Numbered from the whole stretch's first letter, positions 15,494 to 46,684 are shown. The stretch: DNA of 62,008 bases, filler included, from Sandaracinaceae bacterium (GCA_947483975.1; 4 parts of 4 records of this genome joined end to end with filler, not necessarily neighbours in it), one strand, 5' to 3'. The notes: generated from the letters alone by a model not told the origin. Program-made: numbers and translations.

Positions 15494-15593
15494 NNNNNNN
15501 NNNNNNNNNNNNNNNNNNNNNNNNNNNNNNNNNNNNNTTAATTAATTAANNNNNNNNNNNNNNNNNNNNNNNNNNNNNNNNNNNNNNNNNNNN
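15494..15593. other. artificial contig linker
   Basis: N44-TTAATTAATTAA-N44, which gives stops in all six frames. Confidence 0.98.
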
Positions 15594-31066: not shown

Positions 31067-31166
31067 NNNNNNNNNNNNNNNNNNNNNNNNNNNNNNNNNN
31101 NNNNNNNNNNTTAATTAATTAANNNNNNNNNNNNNNNNNNNNNNNNNNNNNNNNNNNNNNNNNNNN
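31067..31166. other. artificial contig linker
   Basis: N44-TTAATTAATTAA-N44. Confidence 0.98.
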
Positions 31167-32291
31167 CGGCGCGCCGCAGTGCGGGCAGTTGAGCAGCTCC
31201 ATCGCGAACGGGCCGTTGCAGTACTTGCAGAAGAGGCGCCCCGCGATGCTCGCCGGATCGATCAGGCGCAGCTCGGGGTAGTTCTGCTCGAGCTCCGCGG
31301 TGCTCATGCGGTCGTTCTCGACGGCGGGGGACCACACGACCTCGAGCGCGACGAGCGACTCGGCGTCGAGGGAGCCGCGCTCCTGGAGCGCTCCACGGAT
31401 CTGGTTCGCGTCGTTGAGGTTGGTGACCGCGGTGAGCCCGCGGCGCGCCACGATGATGAGCGAGACGACGACGGTGCCCTGCCCCTCGGTCGCCTTCGCG
31501 CGCATCTCGGGCGTCGGGTTCTGCACGACGCTGCCGTCCGCTGCCCGGACGATCTCCTGCCGGAAGCGGGCGCGGGCCTCGCTCGCCGCCCCCTGGAACG
31601 CGGCCTGCGCCTGCGGTCCGCCGAGCGGCGGTCCGGAGTCCTTGTACGCCGCGTAGAGCCACGCGATCTCGGCACGTCGCAGCGCGAGCACGGTCTCGCG
31701 CAGCAGCATCGCGCGCCCTTCCTTGGTGCCCGTCGCGCCGCTCGCCGCGAGCCTCGAGAGCTGCTCCTGCAGCTCCTTGCGCGCGCGCCAGTCGATGCCG
31801 AGCGTCAGCTGGCTGAGGAACATGCCGCCCGTCGCGCCGACGTAGCTCTGACCACCCGTGACGGCCGCCGCGCCGCCCTTCTTCTTGCTGACGATCGCGT
31901 AGACGACGAGCGCGAGGCAGATCATCACGCACATGCAGAACGAGCCCGCGCCGCCCGCCGCGCCCTTGCCGCTGCTGTCGCCCGAGTAGCTGCTCCCCGA
32001 GGACGACGACGACGAGCTCCAGTCGCTGCCGCCCGAGCCGCCCCAGCTGCCGCCGGAGCTACCCGAGCTTCCGCTCGAGCCGGAGTTGGAGAAGTCGCCT
32101 CCGCCGAAGCTCCCGCCCGTCGCCTGGGCGTGCGCCGTGGCGACGACGCCGAGCGGCGCGAGCGCGGAGAGGATGAGCGAGAGCAGGAGCGCGGCGAGCG
32201 CGGTGCGGGTCGGCCGGATGAAGGGCATTGCGGCGGCGACTATCTCACGAGCGCGCGCCGCTGGGGAGACGTGTCGAGCGACCGCGCTCAC
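31167..32291 (-). CDS. DUF1517 (FLAP1-like) protein with C-terminal Zn ribbon, 3' end at contig edge
   Basis: Signal/TM, GGSFGGGDF plus Gly/Ser tract, TM, then ELQ.QL.RLA...T...LLRETVLAL.R and LVALEVVWSP....D.MS..ELE.NYPEL, ending CKYC..CPHCGAP. GTGA overlap at 32288-32291; alternative ATG 32228. Confidence 0.8.
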
Positions 32292-33793
32292 GGGTCACGC
32301 CCGAGCAGCCGCAGGCTGTGCGGCGAGAGCGACGGGTCGACGTAGACGTGCGCGCCGGCGCGGAGCGCGCGCCGCAGCTCGCCCGGCGGCACGGGGCGCT
32401 CCATCAGGTCGAAGAGGCGAAAGCACGCGACCTCCGCGCCGTCGTCGCGGACGAGGTAGATGGTCCGCCCCGGCACCTGCTTCGTGAGGTCCGCGAGCAG
32501 GAGCCGGTCGATCCAGAACGGCAGCACGATGGGCTCGCTGTGCTGCTCGCGCACCTCCGCCGCGACGGCGCGAAGCTGCACGAACGCGGGGTCAGCCCAC
32601 GCGCCGCCGTAGTGGTGCACGACCGTGACGACGGTGCCGACGCCCTGCAGCGCGACGAGCGTCGCGATGAGCCCGACGACGAACGCGCTCGGCTTCGAGC
32701 GCAGCAACAGCACGAGCGCGAAGAGCGCGCCCACCCAGAAGATGTCCCAGCGCTCGATCAGCGCGGGCTCGTAGAGATACGGGAACACGAGCGCCACGCC
32801 GAAGAGCGCAAACAAGTCGAGGCGCGTCGAGAGCGCCGCCCGCAGCGCGCCGCCACGAAAGAGCAGCACCCAGCCGACGAGGCACGCCGCGAGCGCGGCG
32901 AGCAGGTGCGGCAGAGAGCCAGTCAGCACCGCGTAGAGGCCCGGCGTCAGGCGCATCAGGTGCACGCTCGGCGTGAGCGCCGTCGCGCGCAGCCCGCCGA
33001 GGTATTGGTCGAGGCGAGCGAGCGAGAAGAGCGGCGTGCTCGACTGTTGAAAGTCGGTGAGCCGCAGCGCCTGGGGCAGGAATTCGTTGACCGCAGGCAT
33101 CGCGCCCGTGAACGGGACGACGTGCGCGACGTAGTAGACGACGAGCGCCGTGCCGGCGGCGACGGCGAGCCCCGACGCGCGGAGCGGCTCGCGCTTCACG
33201 AGCAGCGGCGTGACCGCGAGCGCGAAGAGCAGCACGAGCAGGGACACATTGATCAGCATCCCGACGGCGAACAGCGCGCCGAGGACCACGCCGCGGCGCA
33301 GCACCGCGCGGCGCTCGCCGCCGCTCTGCGACGCGACGTAGAAGATGCCGAGCACGACGGGCAGATAGAGGACGTTGTCCTCGGCGAGCAGGAACAGCGA
33401 CACCAAGCCCGGGCTGCCGAGCGTCGCCGCCGTGAGCACGAGCGCAGTGGCGGGCAGCGAGAGCCCCTCGCGGCGGCAGATCCACGCGAGCAGCCAGAGA
33501 AACGCCGCGGCGCCGAGCGCCGTCATCACGACGACGGACGTCGCGTCGCGCAGCCCGAGGACCATCAGCGCGCGCATCAGGTAGTGATAGAGGACGTGCC
33601 CGTCGAGGAAGCGCTCGGGCTGATAGTGATGGATGAACTTGAGCCGCCCGTAGGTGTCCCAGTCCCAGAGTCCGACCTCCCCGCGCCGCACGAACACGAG
33701 CGCGGCCGTGAGCGCGGCGAACGCTGCGGCGCCGAGCGACCACGCGCGCGCGCGCTGCCAATTGGTCTGCGGGGGAGCGTCCTCTTGCGTCAT
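32288..33793 (-). CDS. polytopic membrane protein, GT-C fold (ArnT/PMT-like) glycosyltransferase candidate
   Basis: About 11 hydrophobic segments; acidic first-loop motif WDWDTY...GHVLY; AEDN; soluble C-terminal tail; ATGA overlap with the GT2 gene. Confidence 0.5.
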   Translation of the reverse strand: MTQEDAPPQTNWQRARAWSLGAAAFAALTAALVFVRRGEVGLWDWDTYGRLKFIHHYQPERFLDGHVLYHYLMRALMVLGLRDATSVVVMTALGAAAFLWLLAWICRREGLSLPATALVLTAATLGSPGLVSLFLLAEDNVLYLPVVLGIFYVASQSGGERRAVLRRGVVLGALFAVGMLINVSLLVLLFALAVTPLLVKREPLRASGLAVAAGTALVVYYVAHVVPFTGAMPAVNEFLPQALRLTDFQQSSTPLFSLARLDQYLGGLRATALTPSVHLMRLTPGLYAVLTGSLPHLLAALAACLVGWVLLFRGGALRAALSTRLDLFALFGVALVFPYLYEPALIERWDIFWVGALFALVLLLRSKPSAFVVGLIATLVALQGVGTVVTVVHHYGGAWADPAFVQLRAVAAEVREQHSEPIVLPFWIDRLLLADLTKQVPGRTIYLVRDDGAEVACFRLFDLMERPVPPGELRRALRAGAHVYVDPSLSPHSLRLLGRDP

Positions 33794-36700
33794 GATCCGC
33801 GCCTCACGTCGAGCTGCGTTGGGCTGAAGACGACGGGCTCGCTCAGCCGGATGTGGATGGCCTGGCCCGTCGGGGAGAGGTCGCGGCGCAAGTACTCGAG
33901 CGCGCGCCGCTGCATTCGCACGGTCACCTCGCCCGTGCGCGCGCCGAGGTCGATCAGCGTCTCGCGGTACGGATGCGCCGGATAAGCCTGCGTCGCGCCG
34001 TCGTTCCAGCGGACGAAGACCTGCGTCGCGCCGAGCCCTTGCAGCAGGAGCAGCGCGTCCGAACGATGGGTCTCCGGCAGGCGAAAGCGCAGAAACACGA
34101 GCCCCTCGTGGTCGCGCGCGGCCTGCGTGTAGGGCGCGTAGCTCTGCCCGTCGAACGACACCTCGAGCTCCGACACCGCGCGCATCGGCGCGGGCAGCGG
34201 CACCGAGAGACGCTCTCCGCGGCTCGCATAGGACACGCCGTTGACGCGCACGCTCGCCCACGACGCGGGCGCGATCAGCTCGAGCGACTCGCCGCTCGGC
34301 GCGTCGCCGAGGAAGCCGGTCGCCGAGCGCGCGCGGACGTGCACCTGCGGGCTGAGCGGCACCGGCCCAGCGCTCGCGTCCGGCACGCTCAGGCGCGTCC
34401 GGCCGCCCCCGCGCAGCCCCGCGTGCGAGGTGAACGCGAGCTCCACCTCGAGCAGCGGATAGCCGGGCACGCTGCGCAGCAGCTCGAGCGGCAAGTCGAC
34501 GACGCGCGCCTCCTCGGGCGCGAGCTCGCCGACGTCCCACGGGCGCCCAGCCAGGGTGAGCACGACGCCCCGCAGCGCATAGCGGCGCCGGTTCTGCACG
34601 CGCACGGGCACCGTCTCCTGCGCCGGGTCGACGCGCGCGCCGAGCGCCTCGAGATCCACGTCCGCGAGCAGCCAAGCGAGCGTGTCGAGCTCGGGCTTCG
34701 GCTGGTTTCGCTCGTCCCAGAAGCCGCGCCGATCGTCCGGCATCTCGGGCGTCCACGGGTCGTTGAAGCTCCCCGGCGGGACCGCCTGCGCCCAGTTGTC
34801 GTTCGACGAGTAGAACACCGCGCCCGACGCGTGCAGCTCACCGAGCGCGGCCCACTGCTGCGTCAACCGCCACTGCCGCAGCGCCGTGGGCGGTCGCTCG
34901 TAGAACGCGACGAAGCCCCCGAGCTCGCTCGCGTAGAACGGGCGCCCGGAGCTCGGCAGCGCGCGCAGCGCCTCGCGCCAGTAAGTGTCGCCGGAGTCGA
35001 GCATGTTGATCCCGAGGACCTCCACCGGATAGTCGAGGAACGTCGCGAACGTCGAGTAAGTCGTGGGCACTTGGTGCGGAGCGCGGCGCGCGGTGCGGAT
35101 CATCCGCGTGATCGCGTCGACGGTGGGCGCGCGACGGTCATCGATCTCGAGCTCGTTGCCGACGTTGAGCATCAGCGCGAAGGGGAAGCCATCGAGGGAC
35201 TCGCCGAGCTCCTGCCAGCGACGCTCGTAGGCGCGGCGGTCGCGCGCGCTGGTCGGGTCGAGGGCGTCCCAGCTCGATTGCTCAGGCTGCGCGATGATGA
35301 GCAGCTGACTCAGTCGCGCGGCCGCGAGGAGCGCGTCAGTCGGCGGGTGATAGAGGCGAATCGCGTTCACGCCGACGCGCCGAAGCTGCCGATAGCCGTC
35401 CGCCGCCGAGAGCCCGAGCGCGGGCGCCGAGAACGTCGGCACCATGCCCTTGACGAGGAAGGGCTCACCGTTGACGCGCAGCTCGCGCCCGCTCGCGTCG
35501 ACGACGCTCGTCGCGATCTCTTGGTCCATCACGCACTGCACGCCCGTCCCCGACAAGACCATGCGGACGAGGTGCGACTCCCAGCCGACGGGGCGCGAGA
35601 AGCGCAGATGGTGCACGCTCGGTCGCGCCGACGCGGGCAGGCTCACGGTGTCGATCAGGGCTCCATCGAGGAAGGTGCGCAGCGCCCGCGGCTGCGCGCC
35701 CGCGGGCACTTTGCCGACGACGTCCACCTCGACCGTGCCGTCCGCGAGCGCCTTGTGCACCTCGAGCAGCAGCAGCGGCGCGTACTGTCGCGCGGCGAAG
35801 AGCGGCTCCCAAAGCAGCGCGCGCTCCTCGTCGCACGGGCCGACGGAGAACACCTCGTTCGCGACGGCGACCCCGAGCGCGAAGAGCGCGACCCACAGCA
35901 CGTACGTGATGCCGCGCTTGCGCTCGCGCGTGACGGCGAACTGCGCGTGCAGCGCCGGCTCCACGGCGCCGCGCGCGTACTCGTTGGTGCGGTCGATGCG
36001 CGACCACTCGCTGTGCCCGAGCGCGTAGTCCGAGAGCCCGAGCAGCGCGCTCAGGAGCTCGAAGAACACGACGAGCGGCGAGGTCACGACGAACACGAGC
36101 AGGTCCCGGAGCGGCGTCGGGCGCAGGAGCAGCCACGCGGTCACCACCGTGGCGAGCCCGAGCACGAAGAGCCCGCCCTGCGCCGCCCAGAGGCTCCCCT
36201 GGTAGGGGAACGACGTGAGGAAGTAGTACGTCTCGCGCTCGAAGAGCCGATAGAAGAACGCGCCCGCCATGCTCAGGTGCGGCGCGACGGCGAGCCAGCA
36301 GACGAGCGCGTCGCGCGCCTTCGTGCGCCGCCGCCACGACAGGTAGAGCGTCAGCGCGAGCGCGACGAGCGCCGAGAGCAGCAGCAGGAGCGCCCGCACC
36401 CAGGCCGTGAACTGAAAAAAGTAATAGAGGCCCTGCGCGAAGAAGAAGGCATTGACGGAAAGCGGGACGAGATAGAATTGCCCGAGCAGACCTGCTTGTA
36501 GGCGCTGCGGCCACGGCAGCCGACTGCGCGCGAGCGAGCGCAGGTGCGCGAAGAACGCGTGCGTGTGCCCGGCCGCCCAGCGCCGACGCCGGAGGACGAA
36601 GCTCGGGACGTTCGGCGTCGTCTCCTCCAGCGAGCCGACCCGCGGGTCGTACGCGATGCGATGGCCAGCCAGCGTCAGCGCGACGGTGAGCCAGGTGTCC

Positions 36701-37422
36701 TCGGTGATGCACTCGGCGAACGGCACGCGCGCGAGCACCTCACGACGAAAGACGGCGGTGCTCCCGGTGAAGCTCACCTGGCCGAACGTCGCCCACGCCG
36801 CCTGGTTGAAGAGCTCGAACACCGTGTGCGAGAGCAGCGCGTCCCACGCCTGCGCGAGCCGGTCGGCGCCGAGCGGGAGCTTGCGACACTGCACGCCGGC
36901 GGCCCCATGGCGCTCGAGCGTCGTGAGCGCAGAGCTGAGCCAGCCGCTCACGGCCCGGTGGTCGGCGTCGAGCATCGCGACGAAGTCGCCCTCGAAGCGC
37001 TCGACCGCGAAGTTGAGCTTCTGGTGCTTGGCGCGGTGCCCCGTCGCGACGACGCGCACCTGCCGCTCGGGCGTGTCGAGCAGCCACTGCACGCGCCCGT
37101 CGGCCTCCTCGCGCCGGCCCTCGAGCACCGTGCGCAGGGCGGCGACCGACACATCCTCGAAGTCCTCGACGAGCACGCAGATCGAGACGCGGCCCGCGTA
37201 GTCCTGCGCGAGCAGCGTGCGCACGGTGTCGATGAGCGCCGCGCCCTCGTGATGCGATGGGACGAGCGCGAGCACGCTGCCCCGCGCGCGCGTCTCAGGC
37301 TCGACGGGCTGCCTGCGACGCCAGCCCTGCGTCAGCGCGAGGCCGTTCAGACCGACCCAATACACGCTGAAATACGCGAGCAGCGCGAGGCTCAGCGAGA
37401 GCAGCGAGGCGGAGAGCGTCAT
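33790..37422 (-). CDS. processive GT2 glycosyltransferase fused to a GH2-like (clan GH-A) TIM-barrel glycoside hydrolase
   Basis: GT2 part: LVPSHHE, K..KLN, MLDADH, FTGSTAVFRR, ITEDT, RRRRWAAG, then 6-7 TM helices. GH part: NGEPFLVKG, GVNAIRLYHP, NVGNEL, PFYASELGG, GFWDERNQPKP. Confidence 0.85.
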   Translation of the reverse strand: MTLSASLLSLSLALLAYFSVYWVGLNGLALTQGWRRRQPVEPETRARGSVLALVPSHHEGAALIDTVRTLLAQDYAGRVSICVLVEDFEDVSVAALRTVLEGRREEADGRVQWLLDTPERQVRVVATGHRAKHQKLNFAVERFEGDFVAMLDADHRAVSGWLSSALTTLERHGAAGVQCRKLPLGADRLAQAWDALLSHTVFELFNQAAWATFGQVSFTGSTAVFRREVLARVPFAECITEDTWLTVALTLAGHRIAYDPRVGSLEETTPNVPSFVLRRRRWAAGHTHAFFAHLRSLARSRLPWPQRLQAGLLGQFYLVPLSVNAFFFAQGLYYFFQFTAWVRALLLLLSALVALALTLYLSWRRRTKARDALVCWLAVAPHLSMAGAFFYRLFERETYYFLTSFPYQGSLWAAQGGLFVLGLATVVTAWLLLRPTPLRDLLVFVVTSPLVVFFELLSALLGLSDYALGHSEWSRIDRTNEYARGAVEPALHAQFAVTRERKRGITYVLWVALFALGVAVANEVFSVGPCDEERALLWEPLFAARQYAPLLLLEVHKALADGTVEVDVVGKVPAGAQPRALRTFLDGALIDTVSLPASARPSVHHLRFSRPVGWESHLVRMVLSGTGVQCVMDQEIATSVVDASGRELRVNGEPFLVKGMVPTFSAPALGLSAADGYRQLRRVGVNAIRLYHPPTDALLAAARLSQLLIIAQPEQSSWDALDPTSARDRRAYERRWQELGESLDGFPFALMLNVGNELEIDDRRAPTVDAITRMIRTARRAPHQVPTTYSTFATFLDYPVEVLGINMLDSGDTYWREALRALPSSGRPFYASELGGFVAFYERPPTALRQWRLTQQWAALGELHASGAVFYSSNDNWAQAVPPGSFNDPWTPEMPDDRRGFWDERNQPKPELDTLAWLLADVDLEALGARVDPAQETVPVRVQNRRRYALRGVVLTLAGRPWDVGELAPEEARVVDLPLELLRSVPGYPLLEVELAFTSHAGLRGGGRTRLSVPDASAGPVPLSPQVHVRARSATGFLGDAPSGESLELIAPASWASVRVNGVSYASRGERLSVPLPAPMRAVSELEVSFDGQSYAPYTQAARDHEGLVFLRFRLPETHRSDALLLLQGLGATQVFVRWNDGATQAYPAHPYRETLIDLGARTGEVTVRMQRRALEYLRRDLSPTGQAIHIRLSEPVVFSPTQLDVRRGS

Positions 37423-37469
37423 CAGGGAGTGGCTACGGCGGTGCTACGGCGGCGCGCCGCCCGGGTCGC

Positions 37470-38216
37470 TCAGGGCACGACGAGGCAGGAGTCGAGCCCG
37501 TGGCAGCTCGAGGTCGGAGCGACGCAGTCCTCGGGGTCTGCGCTGCCCTCGCGCAGCGGATCCCCGCAAGAGCCCGAGGTGCCGTAGCCGCAGAGGCACT
37601 CCGCCGGCGCGCACGCGCGAACGCGGCAGTCGAAGTCCACGCACTCGCAGTGGCTCGACTCGCACGCAGCGTCGCTGGTGCACGCGGCACCCACCGTGAG
37701 CAGCGGCCCGGCGTCCACGCCCCCGTCGTGCGCGAGCGGCACGTCGATGAACGGCGGCAGCGTGATCGGATCGACCTCGGCGGGCACGCACGCGCCGCTC
37801 GGCGAGCAGGTCTCTCCCTCGGCGCAGACGACGCCGACGCACGCCGACGCGAGCACGATGCGCACGACGAGGCGACGCCCCTCGATGAAGCTCGTGCGCA
37901 CCTCGGCGAAGACCCGGCGCGTGCCCGAGAGCAGCCCCGCCGCACGGATCGTGACGGCGGAATTCCCCGGCGTGTTCGGTCGGAGCCCGAGCGTCACGGG
38001 GAGGTACACGGAGTTCGGCCCAGTGAGCATGGCGCTCGAACTGGTGGGAATTCCGGCCGGCCCCTCGATCTGGAGCGAGATCTCGTCGATGGCGGCCGGC
38101 ACCGGCAGGTCGCTCTCGACGACGACCACGATCTCGGTCAGCTCGTTCTTGGCGCAGGAGCCGAGCAGGAGCCAGAAAGCCAAGCCGAAGAAGACGAGGC
38201 GGCGCGGCGCGGACAT
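37470..38216 (-). CDS. lipoprotein with beta-sandwich and Cys-rich C-terminus
   Basis: Lipobox LLGSC; TEIVVVVESDL.VP...; many C-terminal Cys. Confidence 0.7.
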   Translation of the reverse strand: MSAPRRLVFFGLAFWLLLGSCAKNELTEIVVVVESDLPVPAAIDEISLQIEGPAGIPTSSSAMLTGPNSVYLPVTLGLRPNTPGNSAVTIRAAGLLSGTRRVFAEVRTSFIEGRRLVVRIVLASACVGVVCAEGETCSPSGACVPAEVDPITLPPFIDVPLAHDGGVDAGPLLTVGAACTSDAACESSHCECVDFDCRVRACAPAECLCGYGTSGSCGDPLREGSADPEDCVAPTSSCHGLDSCLVVP

Positions 38217-38289
38217 GCGCGCGACATTATCACGCCGCTCCCGCTCGAACCAGCGCGTCGTCGAGGTGTGTTCCGTAGGCTGCACCGCG

Positions 38290-39009
38290 TCAGACCATCG
38301 TCAGCAGCGCGTCGTCGTCGAGGTGCGGCGTGGCGTTGAAGACGCTGAGCGAAGCGCGCTCCCCCGAGAAGCGCAGCTCACAGGTGGACGCGTTTCGGAT
38401 CGCGAAGCTGAGGTCCATCGCGCGCGCATCGTCGAGCCCGAGCGCGTCGGAGACCGCCGCCGCCATCGTGCCGCCTGACGTGAACGCCGCGAGGCGCTGT
38501 CCGTGCTGCGCGCGCCCGAGCATCGTGCGCACGCCGCCGCGCACTCGCGCTCGAAACGCGTGAAACGCCTCCGGCCCGCCCGCGCGCTCGGGCACCTCGC
38601 CCTGCGCCCAGGCGTGCATCACGCGGCGGAACACGCGCAGAAACTCGTCGGTCGGCGCGTCCCCTCGCGCGATGCGCTCGACCATCGCCGCGAGCTCGAG
38701 GTCCTTCTGCGCGAGCGCCGGGATCGCCTCCGAGACGACCGTGATGCCGTGATGCTCGTCGAGCGCGTCGAGCGGCTGCGGCGCGGGCAGCGCGAGCTCG
38801 TGCGCGGCGTACGCGGCGACGACCTCCGCGTGCGTCTGCGCGTGCCGCTTCCTCGGGCCGACGTAGACGTGATCGAAGCGCCTCGCGCGCGCCGCCCAGT
38901 AGTCGCCGAGCAGGCGCGCTTGCCGCGTGCCGAGCGGCGAGAGCTGATCGTAGTCGCCCTTCGTCAGCGACGACGCCTGTCCGTGTCGAACGAGGACGAG
39001 CGTGCCCAT
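38290..39009 (-). CDS. histidine phosphatase / phosphoglycerate mutase family protein
   Basis: LVLVRHGQAS, YDQLS.LG..QA, R..QT, FTSGG, FN..PHL. Confidence 0.9.
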   Translation of the reverse strand: MGTLVLVRHGQASSLTKGDYDQLSPLGTRQARLLGDYWAARARRFDHVYVGPRKRHAQTHAEVVAAYAAHELALPAPQPLDALDEHHGITVVSEAIPALAQKDLELAAMVERIARGDAPTDEFLRVFRRVMHAWAQGEVPERAGGPEAFHAFRARVRGGVRTMLGRAQHGQRLAAFTSGGTMAAAVSDALGLDDARAMDLSFAIRNASTCELRFSGERASLSVFNATPHLDDDALLTMV

Positions 39010-39023
39010 GAGGCTCTCCGTGG

Positions 39024-41060
39024 TCAAAGCAGCCCCGAGCGCACGAGCATCGCGTCCGGATCGGGGTCGCGCCCCATGAACGCACGGTAGAGCACGAGCG
39101 GGTCTTCGCCGTCGCCGCGCGCGAGCAGCTCGCTGCGGAACGACGCGCCGACCTCGCGGCTGAAGATGCCCTCCGCGCGAAAGCGGGTGAAGGCGTCGGC
39201 GTCGAGCACCTCGGCCCACTTGTACGAGTAGTACGCGGCCGCATAGCCGACCGGGCTGCCGAAGAGATGCCCGAAGCTCGCGATCATCGCGTAGTCCTCG
39301 GGCAGCGCGGTCACGCTGTGCTGCGCGATGATGCTCCGCGCGTACGCGATGACGTCGCCGTCGCGCGCCGGGTCGTAGCGGCGGTGCAGCCCGAGGTCGA
39401 CGGCGCCGAAGCCGAGCTGCCGCATCTGATCGGTCGCGGCGCGGAAGTTCTTCGCGCGGAGCAGCTTGTCGAAGAGCGCGTCGGGCACGCGCTCGCCCGA
39501 GTCGAGGTGCCGCGCGACGAGGTCGAGGCCTTCGCGCTCCCAGCACCAATTCTCCATGATCTGCGAGGGAAGCTCGACGAAGTCCCACGCGACGCGCGTG
39601 CCCGCGAGCGAGCGCACCTCGACGCCCGAGAGCAAGTGGTGGAGCAGGTGCCCGAACTCGTGAAAGAGCGTCTCGAGCTCGCGGTGCGTGAGCAGCGAGA
39701 CGCCCGCCGCCGACGGCGGCGTGAGGTTCGCGCAGATCGTCGCGGCGTGCGGCGTGCCCGGGAGGCTCGTGACGAAGGGGCCCATCCAGGCGCCGTCGCG
39801 CTTGGTCTCGCGCGGAAAGAGGTCGAGGTAGAAGTAGCCGAGGAGCGCGCCGCCTTCGTCGCGCATCGCGTACGCGCGCACGCGCTCGTGCCAAACGGGC
39901 GCGTCCGAGAGCGACTCGACGCGCACGCCGTAGAGCCTGTGCGCGACCTCGAACACGCCCTCGATCGCCTGCTCGACAGGCAGGTACGGGCGCAGCACCT
40001 CCTCGTCGAAGTCGTAGAGCGCGCGGCGCTGCTTCTCGGCGTAGAACGCGACGTCCCAGGGCGCGAGCGCGGGCGCGTCGCTCCCCTCGAGCTGCCGGCG
40101 ATACTCGCCGAGTTCGCGCGTCTCGCGCTCGAACGCGGGGCGCGTCTTCTGCTCGAGCCGCGCGAGAAAGGCGTCCGCCGTCGCGCCGTTCTTCGCCATG
40201 CGGTCAGCGAGCACGTAGTCGGCGAAGTCGCGGAAGCCGAGCAGCAGCGCCTGCTCGTGCCGCAGCGCGACGACCTTTGCGACGAGCGCGCGGTTGTCGT
40301 GCGGGCCGCTCGTCGCCCGCGTCGCGAAGGCGTGCCAGAGCGCCTCGCGCAGCGTGCGGTCCTCGCAGTACGTCAGCACCGCGAGGTAGCTCGGCGCGTC
40401 GAGCCCGAAGCGCCAGCCTGCGCGCCCGCGCGCCTCTGCGCCCGCGAGCGCCGCCGCCCGGGCGCGGTCCGGTAGACCGTCGAGGCGGGACGCGTCCTCC
40501 ACGATCAGCTCGAACGCCGCGGTCGAGTCGACGACGTTCTGCGAGAACTTCGAGGTCACCTCGGCGAGCTGCACGCTGAGCGCGCGCAGGCGGTCCTTGC
40601 CCGCCGGGTCGAGGTCCGCGCCGCTCCGCCGGAACTCGTCGAGCGTCTTCTCGAGGAAGCGCTTGCGCGTGCCCGTCAGGTGCTTGGCGTCGGGCGTCTC
40701 GGCGTACGCCTTGAGCGCGGACCAGAGCTTCGGGTCGAGGGGGATTCCCGCGTAGAACTCGCTCACCGCGGGTCGCACCGCGTCGTAGGCCGCGCGAATC
40801 GCCGGGCCCGTGCAGGTCGCCTCGAGGTGCGAGACCAACGACATCACGACCTCGAGCCGCGCCGTCGCCTCGTCGAGCACGCCGAGCACCGCGGCGTAGT
40901 CGCGCGCGGCACCGTCGGCGCCGATCGAGCCGAGCGCAGCGCGCGCCTCGGCGAGCAGCGCGCCGACGGCGGGCTCGATCAGCTCGGGGTGCAGCTCGCC
41001 CCAACGCACGGGCATAGCGAGACTCAGGAAGGGATTCGTCGAGGCGTTCGCCGTGCTCAC
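39024..41060 (-). CDS. prlC: oligopeptidase A (peptidase M3)
   Basis: FYLDLFPRE.K..GAWM, TLFHEFGHLLH, WDFVELPSQIMENW, YAAAYYSYKWAEVLDADAF, F.GR.P. GTG start at 41060 is my choice. Confidence 0.92.
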   Translation of the reverse strand: MSTANASTNPFLSLAMPVRWGELHPELIEPAVGALLAEARAALGSIGADGAARDYAAVLGVLDEATARLEVVMSLVSHLEATCTGPAIRAAYDAVRPAVSEFYAGIPLDPKLWSALKAYAETPDAKHLTGTRKRFLEKTLDEFRRSGADLDPAGKDRLRALSVQLAEVTSKFSQNVVDSTAAFELIVEDASRLDGLPDRARAAALAGAEARGRAGWRFGLDAPSYLAVLTYCEDRTLREALWHAFATRATSGPHDNRALVAKVVALRHEQALLLGFRDFADYVLADRMAKNGATADAFLARLEQKTRPAFERETRELGEYRRQLEGSDAPALAPWDVAFYAEKQRRALYDFDEEVLRPYLPVEQAIEGVFEVAHRLYGVRVESLSDAPVWHERVRAYAMRDEGGALLGYFYLDLFPRETKRDGAWMGPFVTSLPGTPHAATICANLTPPSAAGVSLLTHRELETLFHEFGHLLHHLLSGVEVRSLAGTRVAWDFVELPSQIMENWCWEREGLDLVARHLDSGERVPDALFDKLLRAKNFRAATDQMRQLGFGAVDLGLHRRYDPARDGDVIAYARSIIAQHSVTALPEDYAMIASFGHLFGSPVGYAAAYYSYKWAEVLDADAFTRFRAEGIFSREVGASFRSELLARGDGEDPLVLYRAFMGRDPDPDAMLVRSGLL

Positions 41061-41170
41061 GAGCGGGTCATAGGGCACGGGCGGGGGCGACCGCAAGTGA
41101 GGCGCGTCGTGGGCGCCCGCCGCGGCGCGCCAGCCTTCCACCGGCGGCGGACGTATGGCACCGTGCGCGC

Positions 41171-42523
41171 GTGCAAATCACAGCCTCTGCCGCGACGGAT
41201 GTGGGCCGGTCGCGCAGCACGAACGAAGACAGCTACCTCGTCGACGCGGCGCTCGGGCTCTTCATGGTCTGCGACGGGATGGGCGGGCATGCGGCGGGCG
41301 AGATCGCGTCGCAGACGACCTGCGAGACGGTGCAGCGCGAGCTGACGAGTGCGCGCGCGAGCCTCGACGCCGTGCGCCGCGGCGAGGCGGCGATCGACCT
41401 CGCCTCGAGCCTGCTGCGCGACGCGGTGATGACCGCGTCGGCGACGGTGTACGACCTCGGCGCGCGCGACAAGAACAAGCGCGGCATGGGGACGACCTGC
41501 TGCGCCCTGCTCGTGCTCGGCAGCAAGGCGGTGATGGCGCACGTCGGGGACTCGCGGCTCTATTTGCTGCGCGAGCGGCAGCTCTATCAGATGAGCGACG
41601 ACCACTCGTTCCTCGCCGAGGCGATCAAGCACGGCGTGCTGTCCGAGGCGCAGGCGGCGGTGAGCACGCACCGCAACATGGTGACGCGCGCGGTCGGCCC
41701 GCAGCGGAGCGTGCAGGTCGATGTGTTGGTGTTCGACGTGCTGCCAGGCGACACGCTGCTGCTCTGCTCGGACGGCTTGCACCAGTACACGCCGAACGCG
41801 CTCGAGCTGGTGCAGCTGCTGTCGGCGGACGCGCCCGAGACGACGCCCGGCAAGCTCATCCAGCTCGCGAACGAGCGCGGCGGGCTCGACAACGTCACGG
41901 CCGTGCTCGTGCAAGCGTCGGCCGAGCTGGCGGAGGCCGTCGCCGACTCGAAGCGGGCGAGCGAGGTCCAAGCGCAATTCGAGGCAATGCGGAATATCGA
42001 GCTCTTCCGGGAGATGACGCTCCCGGAGCTCGCGCGCATCCTGCACGTCGCGCAGACCGTCGAGGTGCCGGCGGGACAGGTCGTGCTCCGCGAGGGCGAG
42101 ACGACCGAGACGCTGTACGTCATCGTCGAGGGCGGCGTGCGCGTGCAGCGCGATGGGCAGACGATCGCGGATCTCGCGGCGGGGAGCCACTTCGGAGAGA
42201 TGGCGCTGCTCAACCAGCGCCCGCGCACCGCGACGGTGATCGCGCGGCTCGAGAGCCGCCTGCTCGTGCTCGACCGGAGCGCGTTCTTCACCCTGGTGCA
42301 GCAGGAGCCGACCATCGCGTCGAAGTTCCTCTGGAAGCTCGCGCAGACGCTCTCGCTGCGGCTCGACGACGTCTACCTGGTGCCCGAGCGGCCCACGATG
42401 GTGGAGCTCCCGACGAGCCCGCCTGCGACCGAGGTCCCGCACGCCGTGGACGAGGCAGCGAGCGCCTCGCCGAAGCTGACGGCGCGCTTTGGCTCGTTCC
42501 CGTCGCCGTTCACGCGCGGCTGA
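41171..42523 (+). CDS. PP2C/PPM Ser/Thr phosphatase fused to a cNMP-binding domain
   Basis: TDVGR.R..NED, VCDGMGGHAAGE.AS, GMGTT, AHVGDSRLY, LLCSDGL, GG.DNVT; C-terminal LYVI..G.V and FGEMALL..RPRTATV. Confidence 0.92.
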   Translation: MQITASAATDVGRSRSTNEDSYLVDAALGLFMVCDGMGGHAAGEIASQTTCETVQRELTSARASLDAVRRGEAAIDLASSLLRDAVMTASATVYDLGARDKNKRGMGTTCCALLVLGSKAVMAHVGDSRLYLLRERQLYQMSDDHSFLAEAIKHGVLSEAQAAVSTHRNMVTRAVGPQRSVQVDVLVFDVLPGDTLLLCSDGLHQYTPNALELVQLLSADAPETTPGKLIQLANERGGLDNVTAVLVQASAELAEAVADSKRASEVQAQFEAMRNIELFREMTLPELARILHVAQTVEVPAGQVVLREGETTETLYVIVEGGVRVQRDGQTIADLAAGSHFGEMALLNQRPRTATVIARLESRLLVLDRSAFFTLVQQEPTIASKFLWKLAQTLSLRLDDVYLVPERPTMVELPTSPPATEVPHAVDEAASASPKLTARFGSFPSPFTRG

Positions 42524-42573
42524 GCGGGCGCGCCCCTTACGCATGGGGCCTCGACGCGCGTACCATCGAGGGA

Positions 42574-43764
42574 ATGCGCCCTCGCTCCGCCTCGCCCTTC
42601 GCCTCCAGTTTTTCGCTCGGTCTGGTCGGCTTGCTCGGTCTGCTCGGCAGCAGCGCGAGCGGCTGTGGCGATGACGACGCTCCTGCGGCGCACGACGGCG
42701 GGAGCGTCGATCTCGGCGCGCGCGACCTCGGCGCGTCGGACCTCGGCGGCGGAGACACCGACCTCGGCGCGGACGTCGACGGCGGCCCTCGCGTCGACGC
42801 CGGGCCGAGCGGGGGCGCCTGCGCGAGGCCGCTCTTCCCCGCCGACGCCCCCTGGAACCAAGACGTCTCGACGGCCGCGGTCGACGCGGAGTCCGCCTCG
42901 GTGATGGCGCACCTCGACTCGCTCGGCTGGGGCTTCGGTCATATGCAGATCGACTTCTCGCTCCACGTTCAGTGCGCGACCGGCGCGCCCATGCGCACGT
43001 TCACGCCGACGAGCGACTTCTTCGACGGGGACTGCGACGTCGCGCAGGTCCCCGTGCCCGTCGGCGGTCACGTCGAGGGCGAGACCGGCTACGCCTGCGC
43101 GGGCGACGGCGACTGCCATCTGCTGGTCGTCGATCCGAGCACGCAGCGCCTCTACGAGCAGTGGCGCGTGAACATCGTCGGCGACGTGTACGAGGGCGGC
43201 TGCCTCGCGGTCTGGGACCTCGCGCATACGCCGCCCGCGGCCGGGCGGGGCGAGCGCTGCACGAGCGCCGACGCGGCGGGGCTCCCGATGACGGCGCTCC
43301 TCTTCGACGCCGATGAGGTCGCGGCCGACGGCATCCACCACGCGATTCGCCTCATCCTGCCCAACGATCGAATCCGCGCGGGGATCTACGTGCACCCCGC
43401 GACGCACGGCACGGGCCCCGGCGGCGGCGCGTCGGGCGGGAGCGACTCGCCTCCCTACGGCGCGCGCCTGCGCCTGCGCAGCGACTTCCCGCTCGCGTCA
43501 CTGCCAAACGACTACGCCCGCGCCGTCGCGCACGCGATGATGCGCTACGGCCTCGTGCTCTCGGACGGCGGCAACGTCGCGCTGACCGCCGAGGACGACG
43601 AGAACACCACGGCCAAGTGGGACTTCACGACCGACGACCGCACGCTCGCGACGGGCCTCGGGCCGCGCGACCTCGACACCTTGCAGCCGGGAGACTTCGT
43701 GATGCTCGAGGGCGGCGCCCGCTACGACTGGCACGACGCGCCAGGCTGCCTCCGCACGCCCTGA
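42574..43764 (+). CDS. uncharacterised exported lipoprotein (TSADAAGLP-motif type)
   Basis: Lipobox SASGC, DLG-repeat linker; FP.D.PWNQDVS, GD.HLLVVD, LYE.W, TSADAAGLP, I.HA.R, PYGARLRL, YGLVL.D.G. Confidence 0.7.
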   Translation: MRPRSASPFASSFSLGLVGLLGLLGSSASGCGDDDAPAAHDGGSVDLGARDLGASDLGGGDTDLGADVDGGPRVDAGPSGGACARPLFPADAPWNQDVSTAAVDAESASVMAHLDSLGWGFGHMQIDFSLHVQCATGAPMRTFTPTSDFFDGDCDVAQVPVPVGGHVEGETGYACAGDGDCHLLVVDPSTQRLYEQWRVNIVGDVYEGGCLAVWDLAHTPPAAGRGERCTSADAAGLPMTALLFDADEVAADGIHHAIRLILPNDRIRAGIYVHPATHGTGPGGGASGGSDSPPYGARLRLRSDFPLASLPNDYARAVAHAMMRYGLVLSDGGNVALTAEDDENTTAKWDFTTDDRTLATGLGPRDLDTLQPGDFVMLEGGARYDWHDAPGCLRTP

Positions 43765-43781
43765 GCCGCACGCCCTGAGCC
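43754..43781. repeat. perfect 14-bp tandem duplication spanning a stop codon
   Basis: GCACGCCCTGAGCC x2; the first copy contains TGA 43762-43764. Confidence 0.85.
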
Positions 43782-43790
43782 AGACGCACG

Positions 43791-44657
43791 ATGCCCCACC
43801 GACTGCGCATCTCCGCCCTCTACGTCTTCCCCGTGAAGAGCTGCGCGGGGCTGCGCGTGGACGAGCTGACGCTCGACGCGATGGGCGCGGCGGGGGACCG
43901 GCGCTTCATGCTCATCGACGCGCACGGGCGCTTCGTCACGCAGCGCGAGCATCCCCGCCTCGCGCTCGTCGCGGTCACGCGCGCAGAGGCGGGCGGCGTC
44001 GTGCTGCACACGGCGGGGCGCACGGCGCTCTCGATCGAGCCGCCGCGCGCAGGCGTCGGTGAGCGCGAAGCGGTCGTGTGGGACGACAGCGTGCGCGTGC
44101 GCGACTGCGGCGACGGCGCCGCCGAGTGGTTCTCGGCGCTGCTCGGCGTCCCGGTGCGCCTCGTGTACTTGCCGGACGAGAGCGTGCGCGGCGTCGATCC
44201 GAGCTACGCCCCGAGCACCGCGCGCGTCAGCCTCGCCGACGGCTTCCCGCTGGTCGTCGCGACGGAAGCCTCGCTCGCGGACCTCTCCGAGAGAGCGGGC
44301 ACGACGCTCGAGATGGAGCGCTTTCGGCCGAACATCGTGGTCAGCGGCGGACGCGCCTGGGACGAGGACCGCTGGGAGACGCTGCGCGTCGGCGAGGTCA
44401 CGCTGCGCCTCGTCAAGCCGTGCGCGCGCTGCACGATGACGCTGGTCGACCCACGGAGCGGGGTGCCCGGCGCGGAGCCGCTGCGCGCGCTCGCGGGGTT
44501 TCGACGCGGGACGGATCTCGGCTTCCGCGGCGCCAACTCCGCGAGCACCTATTTTTCTTGGAACGCGCTCCACGAGGGCCTCGGTACGCTGCGCGTCGGG
44601 GACGTCGTCACCGTGAGCGCGCAGCGGCTCGCGCGTCATATCTCGCGTCGTAGCTGA
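43791..44657 (+). CDS. MOSC domain protein (YcbX/mARC-like)
   Basis: LYVFPVKSC.G, DRRFML, TQRE.P.LA, LADGFP, RFRPNIVV, KPCARC. Confidence 0.92.
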   Translation: MPHRLRISALYVFPVKSCAGLRVDELTLDAMGAAGDRRFMLIDAHGRFVTQREHPRLALVAVTRAEAGGVVLHTAGRTALSIEPPRAGVGEREAVVWDDSVRVRDCGDGAAEWFSALLGVPVRLVYLPDESVRGVDPSYAPSTARVSLADGFPLVVATEASLADLSERAGTTLEMERFRPNIVVSGGRAWDEDRWETLRVGEVTLRLVKPCARCTMTLVDPRSGVPGAEPLRALAGFRRGTDLGFRGANSASTYFSWNALHEGLGTLRVGDVVTVSAQRLARHISRRS

Positions 44658-44693
44658 CGCTCGAGCGCCCGACGGGGTATCCTCCGCCGGCTC

Positions 44694-45314
44694 ATGGAAC
44701 GCGACCTCACTGGCCGCTGCGGCACGTGCGCCTTCTTCGGACGTTATTACGTCGAGGGCGCCGAGGTGCAGTCGGGCGACTGCCGCATCTGGAAGGCGCG
44801 CAAGCTCGAGACGGGGATGTGCCCGAGCTACAAGGCGCTCGGCGCGAGCTGGGACGGTTGGACGAAGAAGAAACCTGCCGCTGCGGGCACGCCGCGCCGT
44901 ATGCGCGAGGAAGACGAGCCGCCGCCGAAGCGCCCGCTTCCTCAGGAGATCGACCTCGACATGGACCAAGCAGAATTCCGTAGAGTGCTCACCGAGGTTC
45001 TGCGCGAGGAGCTCGGCGTCGGGGATGCGACGCTCGGGGACCGCTGGCGCGGCGGCGAGGTCGTGCTCGTCCCCGGCAAGAAGGAGACGCAGGAGAAGCG
45101 CGTCCCCATCGACGCGCTCTTCAACAAGATCGTGATGATCCGCGACAAGCTCCGCGTGCTCGAGCAGAAGGTCAACGGCAGCGCCAGCCTGGCCGCCGAC
45201 GAGAAGCTGCAGCTGCAGCAGTACGTGACCGCCTGCTACGGCTCGCTCACGACCTTCAACGTGCTCTTCCGCGACGACGACGACCGCTTCCGCGGCCAAG
45301 GCGGCAAGGACTGA
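44694..45314 (+). CDS. hypothetical protein with N-terminal 4-Cys motif and helical C-domain
   Basis: CGTC…C…C, then KIVMIRDKLRVLEQKVN…LQQYVT.CYGSLTTFNVLF; GC-rich third codon positions typical of real genes here. Confidence 0.7.
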   Translation: MERDLTGRCGTCAFFGRYYVEGAEVQSGDCRIWKARKLETGMCPSYKALGASWDGWTKKKPAAAGTPRRMREEDEPPPKRPLPQEIDLDMDQAEFRRVLTEVLREELGVGDATLGDRWRGGEVVLVPGKKETQEKRVPIDALFNKIVMIRDKLRVLEQKVNGSASLAADEKLQLQQYVTACYGSLTTFNVLFRDDDDRFRGQGGKD

Positions 45315-45361
45315 GCGAGCGCGCTCCGCGGGGCGCGCTGTCCGCCGGGCGCGCAGTCCGC

Positions 45362-45952
45362 TCAGCTCTCGTCGGCGGCGTCGGGCCTCGGGGCGCCGAA
45401 CTGCAGGACGTCGTGCACGTCGCCGCGCAGCGTGTGGCGCTCGGCGCGTGGGTCGGCCGCCGCGAGCGCCTCGGTCCGCGCAAGGCCCTCGAGCTCCTTC
45501 GGTCGGGCGACGAGCACGGGCAGGTGCGCCTCGGCGACGAGCCTCGTCGCGATGGAGCCGAGCAAGAGCTTGTCGAGCCCGCGCCGACCGTGCGTGCCCA
45601 CGATGATCAGGTCCGCGTCGACGTCGACGGCGAGCTGATGGACCGCCTTGACCGGGTCCCCGAGCCGCACGTGGAAGCCGACGCCTTGGTCCCAGCGATG
45701 CCCGGTGACGCGCGCGCCGACGTCGAGCACGAGCTCACGCAGGCGTCGGTACGTCGCGTCGATCGCGTGGCTCTCGCGCTCGATTCCGTCGCGCTTGATC
45801 CACGGGTCGATGGGCAGCACGTGCACGACGTGCAGCGCAGTGCCCGAGATGCGCCGAGCGAGCTGAATCCCGGCGACGATCGCGTGCTCGGAGGCGGGCG
45901 TGAAGTCCACCGCGATGACGACTCGCTGCACGACGTGAGTGCTCTCAGACAT
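45362..45952 (-). CDS. universal stress protein (UspA family)
   Basis: VVIAVDF...S..A, GDP...., ADLIIVGTHGRRGL..LLLGS.A..LV......VLV. Confidence 0.92.
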   Translation of the reverse strand: MSESTHVVQRVVIAVDFTPASEHAIVAGIQLARRISGTALHVVHVLPIDPWIKRDGIERESHAIDATYRRLRELVLDVGARVTGHRWDQGVGFHVRLGDPVKAVHQLAVDVDADLIIVGTHGRRGLDKLLLGSIATRLVAEAHLPVLVARPKELEGLARTEALAAADPRAERHTLRGDVHDVLQFGAPRPDAADES

Positions 45953-46018
45953 GGCCCTCCGCTTGGCTGCCGTCCAGATACGCCCACGCGGACGCGGTGC
46001 CAACGCGCCTCGCTCGGT

Positions 46019-46584
46019 TCACGCAGAGCCGAGCAACGCGCGCGCCTTGGCGACCCACTCCTCGCGCTCGAGGCGATCGACCCGCGCGCCGATCTTCTGC
46101 GCGATGTCCGCGAGGTCCGCGCTCGTCCAAGCCGCGATCTGCGCGTAGGTGCTGACGCCGACGGCGCGCAGCGCTTGCTCGAACTTGGGCCCGATGCCCT
46201 TGATGCGACGGAGATCGTCCGGCGGCTTGGAGACTGAGAGCTCGACGACGCGCGCCTCGAGCTCAGCGATCCGCAGGCGCGCCGCGTCGAGCTCGAGCAT
46301 CGCGGGGCGCAGGCTCGAGAGCTCGCCGAGCAGCATCGTCGCGCGCGCCTGCGTCTCGAGCAGCTCACGCTGCAGCTGAGCGATCTTGGTGGCGTCGAAG
46401 ACTGCCGCGACCGGAGGTGGATCCGACGGGCGGCGTGCGTTGTACGCGCCAGGCTCGCGGAGCGGCGCCGGCGCTGCCGGGAGGCGCGACAAGGACGGGA
46501 TGGGCGTCGACGGACGCAGCGGGGGCAGCGACGACGGCCGCGAGGGCAGCGGCTCGCGGGGCGGCGGGAGCGGACGCGCCGGGA
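46019..46584 (-). CDS. protein with Pro-rich region, coiled coil and C-terminal helix-hairpin-helix domain, 5' partial
   Basis: DDLRRIKGIGPKFEQAL...GV.TYAQIAAWT…EEWV..A..L. Confidence 0.7.
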
Positions 46585-46684
46585 NNNNNNNNNNNNNNNN
46601 NNNNNNNNNNNNNNNNNNNNNNNNNNNNTTAATTAATTAANNNNNNNNNNNNNNNNNNNNNNNNNNNNNNNNNNNNNNNNNNNN
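46585..46684. other. artificial contig linker
   Basis: N44-TTAATTAATTAA-N44. Confidence 0.98.

Follow-up and report, generated by a model that had tools for sequence, protein, structure and literature searches.

A GT2-GH2-like fusion, an orphan GT-C-fold protein and a Cys-rich lipoprotein as a candidate envelope glycan system of a Sandaracinaceae bacterium

A 62,008-nucleotide stretch of DNA from a Sandaracinaceae bacterium (GCA_947483975.1; the whole stretch is called the window here, and positions are counted from its first letter) carries a block of minus-strand genes whose centre is a 1210-residue protein that combines a glycosyltransferase family 2 (GT2) domain with a domain resembling glycoside hydrolase family 2 (GH2). 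We propose, with a probability of roughly 55%, that this putative synthase forms a unit with a Cys-rich lipoprotein encoded upstream and a membrane protein of the GT-C glycosyltransferase fold encoded downstream, and that the three make and process a glycan in the manner of NdvB; the DUF1517 gene that follows is left out of the unit. The conserved trio probably builds an envelope glycan that has not been described. The initial annotation of the block, which had joined the synthase, the GT-C-like protein and DUF1517 in one operon, is thereby partly supported.

Knowledge of synthase-dependent glycan systems comes from a few models, namely cellulose, poly-N-acetylglucosamine (PNAG), Pel, alginate and the NdvB glucans. 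What is new compared with these models is a GH2-type domain built into the synthase itself, and in a small myxobacterial clade this fusion is joined by two unannotated families, the orphan GT-C protein and a lipoprotein domain with 10 cysteines. As a compact and testable system, the trio lends itself to asking how a GT-C enzyme cooperates with a synthase, and an operon boundary drawn from sequence alone is now corrected. Literature searches, judged mostly from their listings, brought up no account of a GT2-GH2 fusion or of the trio. The features of the unit are as follows.

37470-38216, minus strand: Cys-rich lipoprotein gene (248 aa), first gene of the conserved unit
33790-37422, minus strand: GT2-GH2-like fusion gene (1210 aa)
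36373-37275, minus strand: GT2 catalytic domain of the fusion (aa ~50-350; from Pfam, family profile and invariant columns)
34666-35769, minus strand: GH2-like beta-sandwich and (beta/alpha)8 barrel of the fusion (aa ~552-919; from AF2, Foldseek, VIA, profile and invariant columns)
33790-33793, minus strand: ATGA stop/start overlap of the synthase and GT-C genes, read from the sequence
32288-33793, minus strand: gene of an orphan GT-C-fold membrane protein (501 aa, ~11 transmembrane helices, small C-terminal alpha/beta domain)

A BcsA-like GT2 domain in the putative synthase

The layout of the synthase, with the membrane sides inferred, is an N-terminal transmembrane (TM) helix, a cytoplasmic GT2 domain, a multi-TM region whose last helix spans residues 508 to 526, and an extracytoplasmic half made of a sandwich, a TIM barrel and further sandwiches. 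The initial annotation had labelled the gene a GT2-GH fusion, and both parts of the label were borne out, GT2 by Pfam and GH by the fold described below. Pfam matches were obtained with PF13641 (E = 1.2e-20), PF13632 (2.1e-11), PF00535 (1.7e-8) and PF13506 (Glyco_transf_21; 5.4e-7). The family profile matched BcsA structures with an E value of 2.5e-15 (58 bits) over the N-terminal TM helix, the GT domain, the TED motif and the RRRRW stretch, and the alignment continues into the first post-catalytic TM helix. A GT-A domain with a DxD motif was confirmed: D152-A-D154 is invariant in 19 synthase sequences, and so are T240-E241-D242 and R278-R279-R280-R281, the latter followed by W282, which is conserved in at least 90% of them. 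This stretch aligns with the QxxRW stretch of BcsA, its first residue being R and not Q. The DxD, TED and Q/RxxRW motifs and the TM segments after the catalytic domain are shared with BcsA-type synthases that have a separate hydrolase (BcsZ, PgaB or PelA). There, as proposed here, the hydrolase acts on the exported polymer; the difference is that here it is fused to the synthase.

Among the named NCBIfam equivalogs, CelA was the best match (7.9e-16), and PgaC and HpnI (1e-9) also matched. However, the synthase scored far below every cut-off (57 versus 699 bits for CelA and 27 versus 422 bits for PgaC). It also failed the MdoH equivalog model NF003962 of the OpgH/MdoH family (15.4 bits versus a cut-off of 328), and Pfam gave no match to PF00332 (GH17).

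Since GT21 and HpnI models also score against the synthase (PF13506 and HpnI, with the E values given above), the GT2 domain could instead be a non-processive lipid glycosyltransferase of the GT21/HpnI kind. No polymer would then be made; on the outside the GH2-like domain would trim a glycolipid, and the GT-C protein would extend it. Ceramide glucosyltransferases, too, typically have a (Q/R)xxRW motif that begins with R, and GH2 enzymes are mostly exo-acting. However, BcsA and CelA score higher than the lipid glycosyltransferase models, the BcsA alignment reaches the first post-catalytic TM helix, and the 5 to 6 hydrophobic segments that hydropathy reveals after the GT2 domain (aa 310 to 526) exceed what a monotopic lipid glycosyltransferase needs. 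We therefore consider a glycolipid product quite improbable and prefer a BcsA-like, polymer-forming synthase.

A GH2-like fold in the outer half of the synthase

The C-terminal half of the synthase folds, in the predicted model, like a GH2 glycosidase of clan GH-A. The AF2 model of residues 500 to 1210 (pLDDT 87, pTM 0.86) has a TM helix, a beta-sandwich, a (beta/alpha)8 barrel and further sandwiches, with a low-confidence insert of ~23 residues within the barrel (model residues 375 to 397). Foldseek gave LacZ, beta-glucuronidases and BgaA as top matches (E ~1e-23), and VIA aligned 358 residues with a Z score of 26.4 and a root mean square deviation of 4.4; all 50 entries listed by VIA were GH2 proteins. 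Identity to GH2 glycosidases is 12 to 16%. The family profile also reached the GH2 chain 7cwd (8.1e-9) and, more weakly, GH158 and GH72.

N756-E757, Y789 and E833 are invariant, N756-E757 and E833 in alignments of 24 and of 19 sequences. N756-E757 and then E833 come in the order in the barrel that is expected for the acid/base and the nucleophile of GH2, and this pattern is what would be expected of a retaining clan GH-A enzyme. The domain shares with LacZ, the beta-glucuronidases and BgaA an Ig-like sandwich, a (beta/alpha)8 barrel and more sandwiches, and its invariant NE and second Glu may correspond to theirs. Unlike these glycosidases, it is tethered through the membrane to a synthase and has no Pfam GH2 match.

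RERKRG stands before the last TM helix and acidic residues stand after it, a charge pattern suggesting an N-in/C-out orientation that would place the C-terminal 680 residues outside the membrane. Because of this pattern and of the invariant cysteines C530 and C630, which bracket the first sandwich, the GH2-like domain is predicted to lie outside.

The closest described systems come from pseudomonads. They are the NdvB-type "Orphan" cyclic beta-(1,3)-glucan synthases, in which a TM region connects a periplasmic GH17 domain to a cytoplasmic GT2 domain and for which a make-and-process logic is proposed (PMC10237404). The likeness lies in a single polypeptide with a BcsA-like cytoplasmic GT2 domain, a TM region and an extracytoplasmic TIM barrel of clan GH-A, and in the absence of a dedicated exporter. 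In contrast to NdvB, the GT2 domain comes first here, the outer domain is C-terminal, GH2-like and ~690 aa long, and there is no N-terminal GH17 domain. Also unlike NdvB, the synthase is conserved together with a coupled GT-C protein and a Cys-rich lipoprotein.

The coupled GT-C protein

The middle protein clearly adopts the GT-C fold according to its structural model, and by sequence it is an orphan. Neither Pfam (E up to 10; PMT_2, PF13231, included) nor NCBIfam gave a match, and the family profile found 0 matches among all PDB sequences at E up to 10. The AF2 model (pLDDT 89.5, pTM 0.89) matched STT3, ArnT, AftA and Pmt4 in Foldseek with a probability of 1.00 and E values from 3.7e-4. VIA gave Z scores of 19.0 for STT3 (412 residues), 17.1 for Pmt4, and 17.5 (399 residues aligned) and 16.9 (5f15, 419 of 501 residues aligned) for ArnT. 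All 50 entries listed by VIA were GT-C-fold proteins, three of them PIG-U, a non-catalytic subunit of the glycosylphosphatidylinositol (GPI) transamidase.

The family is small. A word-indexed search of 5.8 billion clusters returned 31 relatives, and an exhaustive profile search of 1.84 billion representatives returned 51 with E values of 1e-3 or less, 22 of them at 1e-30 or less. When 20 proteins (19 weak matches of the GT-C profile and a protein called P0060, described below) were scanned with Pfam, 2 matched PMT_2, 1 matched GT87 and 17 matched nothing; the E values in this fringe were 1.4e-9 for PMT_2 and 8e-7 for GT87. Leads from the atlas were clusters named RgtA/B/C/D-like, PMT_2, TMEM260-like, Agl23 and "protein O-mannosyl-transferase family". 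The initial annotation had guessed a GT-C-like protein and had named ArnT, PMT and DUF2723 for comparison; the fold and the nearest leads, of the ArnT, PMT_2 and TMEM260 types, agree with that guess.

In 28 sequences, D44 and D46 are invariant; they lie 8 to 10 residues past TM1 (helix 11 to 36), at the start of the loop helices, and they may be equivalent to the acidic residues in the first extracytoplasmic loop of ArnT or PglB. E138-D139-N140 and E342/E347/D350 are also invariant and also lie in loops, and all three acidic motifs are predicted to face the periplasm. The protein resembles ArnT, PMT_2 and STT3 in its short cytoplasmic N-terminus, the acidic motif after TM1 with two loop helices, and the small C-terminal soluble domain. 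It differs from them in having a motif set of its own (GLWDWDTYGR, EDN and FPYxYEPxLIERWD) and in being coupled to a synthase gene rather than to a donor-making GT2 of the GtrB/ArnC type.

Four-nucleotide overlaps had been claimed for both junctions of the three-gene block, and the one between the synthase and GT-C genes (ATGA, 33790-33793) stands. Only 1.7% of the 3017 codons of five local genes end in A, and since an A before TGA is therefore expected in only ~1.7% of cases, the overlap is far from a chance event. GAGG lies 10 to 13 nt 5' of the ATG, and the start agrees with the N-termini of homologues. Moreover, 10 of 11 related loci offer a candidate start that overlaps the synthase stop, by 4, 11 or 14 nt, and two of these starts match N-termini in databases. 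A complex prediction for residues 300 to 650 of the synthase with the GT-C protein gave a score of 0.00 and a mark of 0.32, which speaks neither for nor against binding.

Conservation of the trio

Relatives of the genes were found in metagenome-assembled genomes (MAGs) of Myxococcota (Myxococcales, Polyangiales, Kofleriaceae, Haliangiales and Sandaracinaceae). The synthase gene lies directly upstream in 5 of 16 genome loci of the GT-C gene, and a Cys-rich gene precedes the synthase in 4 of these 5. The outer domain of the synthase is encoded in 31 metagenome loci, and the five closest (40 to 46% identity, L028-L032) all run into a GT-C gene. Taken together, GT-C comes next after the synthase in all 10 of the 10 related loci with a synthase identity of at least 40%, a count from which L055 was left out as too short. 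The neighbourhood comparison that the initial annotation had suggested for its three genes came out in favour of the synthase/GT-C pair and against DUF1517, for which the numbers are given below. Two loci gave observations of their own. L011 (6272-11390) has frame changes in the synthase gene (~residue 435) and in the GT-C gene (~residue 116), which point either to pseudogenes or to indel errors in an assembly of long reads. L019 (5719-8380, Polyangiaceae) has the GT-C gene near a GH1 gene (1.3e-152) and a weakly GH17-like open reading frame (ORF; 2e-6, just under the family cut-off).

The gene that the three-gene boundary had missed is the one upstream. The lipoprotein gene, separated by 47 nt from the synthase gene that follows it, encodes a lipobox (LLLGSC), a beta-sandwich-like N-terminal part and a C-terminal domain of ~75 aa with 10 conserved cysteines (CECVDFxC...CLCGYGTSGxC...DPEDCD). 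It has no match in Pfam (E up to 10) or NCBIfam, and a search with the 10-Cys domain found only 4 proteins in the set of 5.8 billion clusters; two of the 4 are encoded on contigs equal in length to contigs that carry members of the trio. Where related loci extend upstream of the synthase gene, the domain is encoded immediately before it in 8 of 8 cases, and all 8 full or partial orthologous ORFs that reach the N-terminus have a lipobox. The N-terminal parts vary among orthologues, several of which (L029, L030 and L016) have a long Asp/Ser/Thr/Gly-rich linker leading up to the Cys domain; the lipoprotein of the window has a folded N-terminal domain and a short linker only. The 10-Cys domain appears to be novel, and judged by gene order it is this lipoprotein, and not DUF1517, that is the conserved third partner of the unit.

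Relatives of the synthase also exist as stand-alone genes. Fusions of ~1200 aa of the GT2-GH2-like type were seen in L033-L054 and P0058, on contigs with a G+C content of 0.29 to 0.67, and one such protein is labelled candidate division SR1. The fusion is therefore an unannotated and fairly widespread family. A 498-aa ORF after the synthase gene in L027 was considered as a GT-C relative and rejected (hhalign probability 0.15).

Proposed mechanism and observations that weigh against it

In the mechanism that we propose, the GT2 domain would polymerize a beta-linked glycan from a cytoplasmic nucleotide sugar and pass the chain through its own membrane domain. The extracytoplasmic GH2-like domain, as a retaining clan GH-A enzyme, would cut or transglycosylate the emerging chain. 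The translationally coupled GT-C protein would work on the periplasmic face with a polyprenyl-phosphate-linked sugar, which it would add to the glycan as a decoration or transfer to some acceptor, for instance the lipoprotein. Since no exporter is conserved with the block, the product would probably stay in the periplasm or bound to the membrane or the lipoprotein. The initial annotation had seen no export gene nearby, and indeed none is conserved around the block in the related loci, nor is a PilZ, BcsB-like, TPR/porin or Wza-type partner.

A three-component scheme of extracytoplasmic glycosylation is known that consists of a GtrB/CsbB-type GT2, a GtrA flippase and a GT-C protein (PMC13390465). 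Both systems have adjacent GT2 and GT-C genes for the modification of envelope glycans; the GT2 protein here, however, is a BcsA-like synthase of 1210 aa and not a small polyprenyl-phosphate glycosyltransferase. The block holds no GtrA-like flippase gene and no donor-making gene.

Several observations weigh against the proposed unit and its mechanism. First, it is ambiguous how many true TM helices follow the GT2 domain, as some of the 5 to 6 segments may be interface helices; the argument that the GH2-like domain lies outside therefore depends on the charges around the last helix and on the invariant Cys pair. Second, the scores of the GT21- and HpnI-type lipid glycosyltransferase models weaken the predicted processivity. 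Third, residues 520 to 1210 have no Pfam match at E up to 10, GH2 models included, and N756-E757 and E833 are a putative GH2 catalytic pair. Fourth, among synthase relatives of less than 40% identity, GT-C is downstream in 0 of 13 loci with at least 1.5 kb of downstream sequence; their neighbours are unrelated housekeeping genes, and such a synthase can therefore work alone. Fifth, a query with the C-terminal part of the synthase had no match in 9 of the 10 genomes with a synthase-free GT-C locus; in the tenth, synthase and GT-C lie on different contigs. The GT-C protein therefore need not act on what the synthase makes.

The distribution can be read as a history of loss. Among 401 sampled genomes of the phylum, GT-C occurs in 3 and the synthase in 4, the window's own genome counted. 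In a midpoint-rooted tree of 19 GT-C rows, synthase-linked rows are found in both major clades and the unlinked rows form derived groups, a pattern that fits an ancestral linkage of GT-C and synthase followed by later loss of the synthase.

Alternatively, GT-C might be a protein O-glycosyltransferase (PMT/TMEM260-like) that acts on the lipoprotein or on other envelope proteins, with the synthase making a separate glycan and the two genes being neighbours for regulation only. Protein glycosyltransferases (STT3, AglB, PglB, Pmt4 and DPY19) are indeed among the best structural matches, the atlas leads include the PMT_2, TMEM260-like and "protein O-mannosyl-transferase family" clusters, and several orthologous lipoproteins have the long Asp/Ser/Thr/Gly-rich linkers described above. 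Also, GT-C is kept in the 9 genomes in which no synthase was found, beside genes for a Ser/Thr kinase and for HYDIN/ASH Ig-like surface proteins. However, the stop/start overlap available in 10 of 11 loci argues for joint production of GT-C and synthase. Moreover, ArnT, whose acceptor is a lipid, matches about equally well over the whole length (Z 16.9 to 17.5), so that the fold does not pick an acceptor class, and the lipoprotein of the window offers only a short linker beside its folded N-domain. On balance a purely protein-directed GT-C appears unlikely to us, and a GT-C that works with the synthase remains the preferred reading.

The synthase-free GT-C loci have a neighbourhood of their own: L006, L008, L009, L012, L013 and L014 hold a Ser/Thr kinase gene, a gene for a HYDIN/ASH Ig-like protein of ~650 aa and P0060, a polytopic membrane protein of ~555 aa with no Pfam match. 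P0060 may resemble ArnT-type proteins; as a relative of GT-C it was rejected, since it has no profile similarity (probability 0.24). The kinase, HYDIN/ASH and P0060 genes may mark a second system built on the same GT-C.

A more far-reaching version of the joint system can be imagined, in which the trio is a lipoprotein-anchored glycan machine. Here, GT-C would take a sugar from a polyprenyl-phosphate donor to prime the 10-Cys lipoprotein, perhaps at its linker. The synthase would extrude a beta-glycan, and the GH2-like domain, acting as a transglycosylase and not as a hydrolase, would move the chain onto the primer. This would be a bacterial "proteoglycan" made without any Wzx/Wzy, ATP-binding cassette (ABC) or Wza component; we consider it a decidedly long shot.

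The DUF1517 gene

31167-32228, minus strand: DUF1517 (FLAP1-family) gene, PF07466; the ORF is open to 32291 and runs into the N linker
32288-32291, minus strand: GTGA at the end of the GT-C gene, probably unused as a start

The three minus-strand ORFs of the initial annotation were found where it had placed them (1210 aa, 501 aa and a third that runs into the N linker), and the DUF1517 label is sound: PF07466 matches with an E value of 1.3e-41 (143 bits versus a cut-off of 23.3) over profile positions 5 to 183 of 184. NCBIfam gave no match for this protein. It consists of a signal peptide, a Gly/Ser-rich stretch, a TM helix, the DUF1517 domain and a CxxC...CxxC end. The contig stops at the motif CPxCGAP, and since the paralogues end 2 to 11 aa past this motif, the gene misses only its last few codons. 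The genome has 4 DUF1517 paralogues in total. The three others, on contigs C264, C97 and C38 (L001, L003 and L004), have a signal peptide, AQxTGGSFGGG, a Gly/Ser stretch, a TM helix, the DUF1517 domain and a zinc-ribbon-like CxxC...CPxCGAP end, and in one copy a long stretch of charged residues is inserted. For a family known from FLAP1, it is unexpected to find four copies in a bacterium that is not photosynthetic.

The second of the claimed overlaps did not hold up as a start. GTGA is present at 32288-32291, yet it needs only a last codon ending in G, and 44% of the same 3017 local codons do so; it is therefore at the level of chance. Between GTG 32291 and ATG 32228, 7 of 21 codons end in A or T, against a G+C content at third codon positions (GC3) of 0.96 in the gene (binomial P = 1.1e-5), and these 21 codons look non-coding. 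ATG 32228 gives MPFIRPTR and a hydrophobic core ending in AHA-QATGGSFGGG, a normal signal peptide like that of the three paralogues in the genome. Because of the non-coding look of the stretch and the paralogue-like signal peptide, the gene most likely starts at ATG 32228, after a gap of 59 nt and not with an overlap. This is the start that the initial annotation itself had said would count against its reading.

As another reading, DUF1517 could be active in the glycan pathway as part of one translationally coupled system with GT2-GH and GT-C. It shares their strand, GTGA is there, no terminator-like site separates the genes (the scan being uninformative at such a G+C content), and the gene order was confirmed in contigs of other runs. 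However, DUF1517 lies beside GT-C in 0 of 16 genome loci (14 of them with at least 2.6 kb downstream) and in 0 of 5 metagenome loci, and it is lacking even beside the GT-C gene of L011, the window's closest relative in the GT-C tree. The chance-level GTGA, the likely start at 32228 and the existence of four paralogues in the genome speak against the coupling as well. Plant FLAP1, the only characterized member, is tied to the control of chloroplast pH and nonphotochemical quenching (NPQ) and not to glycans (PMC9174948). Membership of DUF1517 in the system, as first annotated, is therefore very unlikely; the gene looks like a lineage-specific downstream neighbour outside the unit.

Source DNA and neighbouring genes

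15494-15593, 31067-31166 and 46585-46684: N runs at the contig joints of the window

The window is composed of four contigs of ~15.4 kb from one MAG (81% complete, with 5.29 Mb in 524 contigs). N...TTAATTAATTAA...N linkers connect the four contigs; TTAATTAATTAA is a six-frame stop linker, and features are not readable across these joints. The G+C content of the window is ~0.72. The gene block forms the left end of contig C91 (window 31167-46584), as the initial annotation had recognized when it placed a contig end beside the operon. The stretch is present in lake-water and freshwater metagenome runs of several studies, and no RNA run is among the 17 public runs listed as containing it. Contigs of other public runs, which inform on gene order only, bridge both gene junctions (X3 records 10 and 13, X6 records 28 and 32, X4 record 17), and the gene order is therefore real and no assembly artefact. 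A scan for promoters and terminators in 31167-39100 gave no promoter-like site and a single terminator-like one, which lies within the GT-C gene, a result within shuffle expectation; such a scan is uninformative at this G+C content. X4 record 17, an 11,220-nt contig over 31167-34578, must extend ~7.8 kb past the end of the MAG contig, and the region downstream of DUF1517 is therefore recoverable.

Upstream of the lipoprotein gene, a previously unlisted gene for a 239-aa histidine phosphatase was found at 38290-39009 on the minus strand (PF00300, His_Phos_1; 1.6e-18). It fills most of the apparent gap of ~800 nt that separates the lipoprotein gene from the M3 peptidase gene (39024-41141) and was rejected as a member of the unit, as it is not conserved in the related loci. 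The same contig encodes a PP2C phosphatase fused to a cyclic-nucleotide-binding domain (41018-42523, plus strand) as well as MOSC and Usp proteins; no link of these genes to the glycan block was seen.

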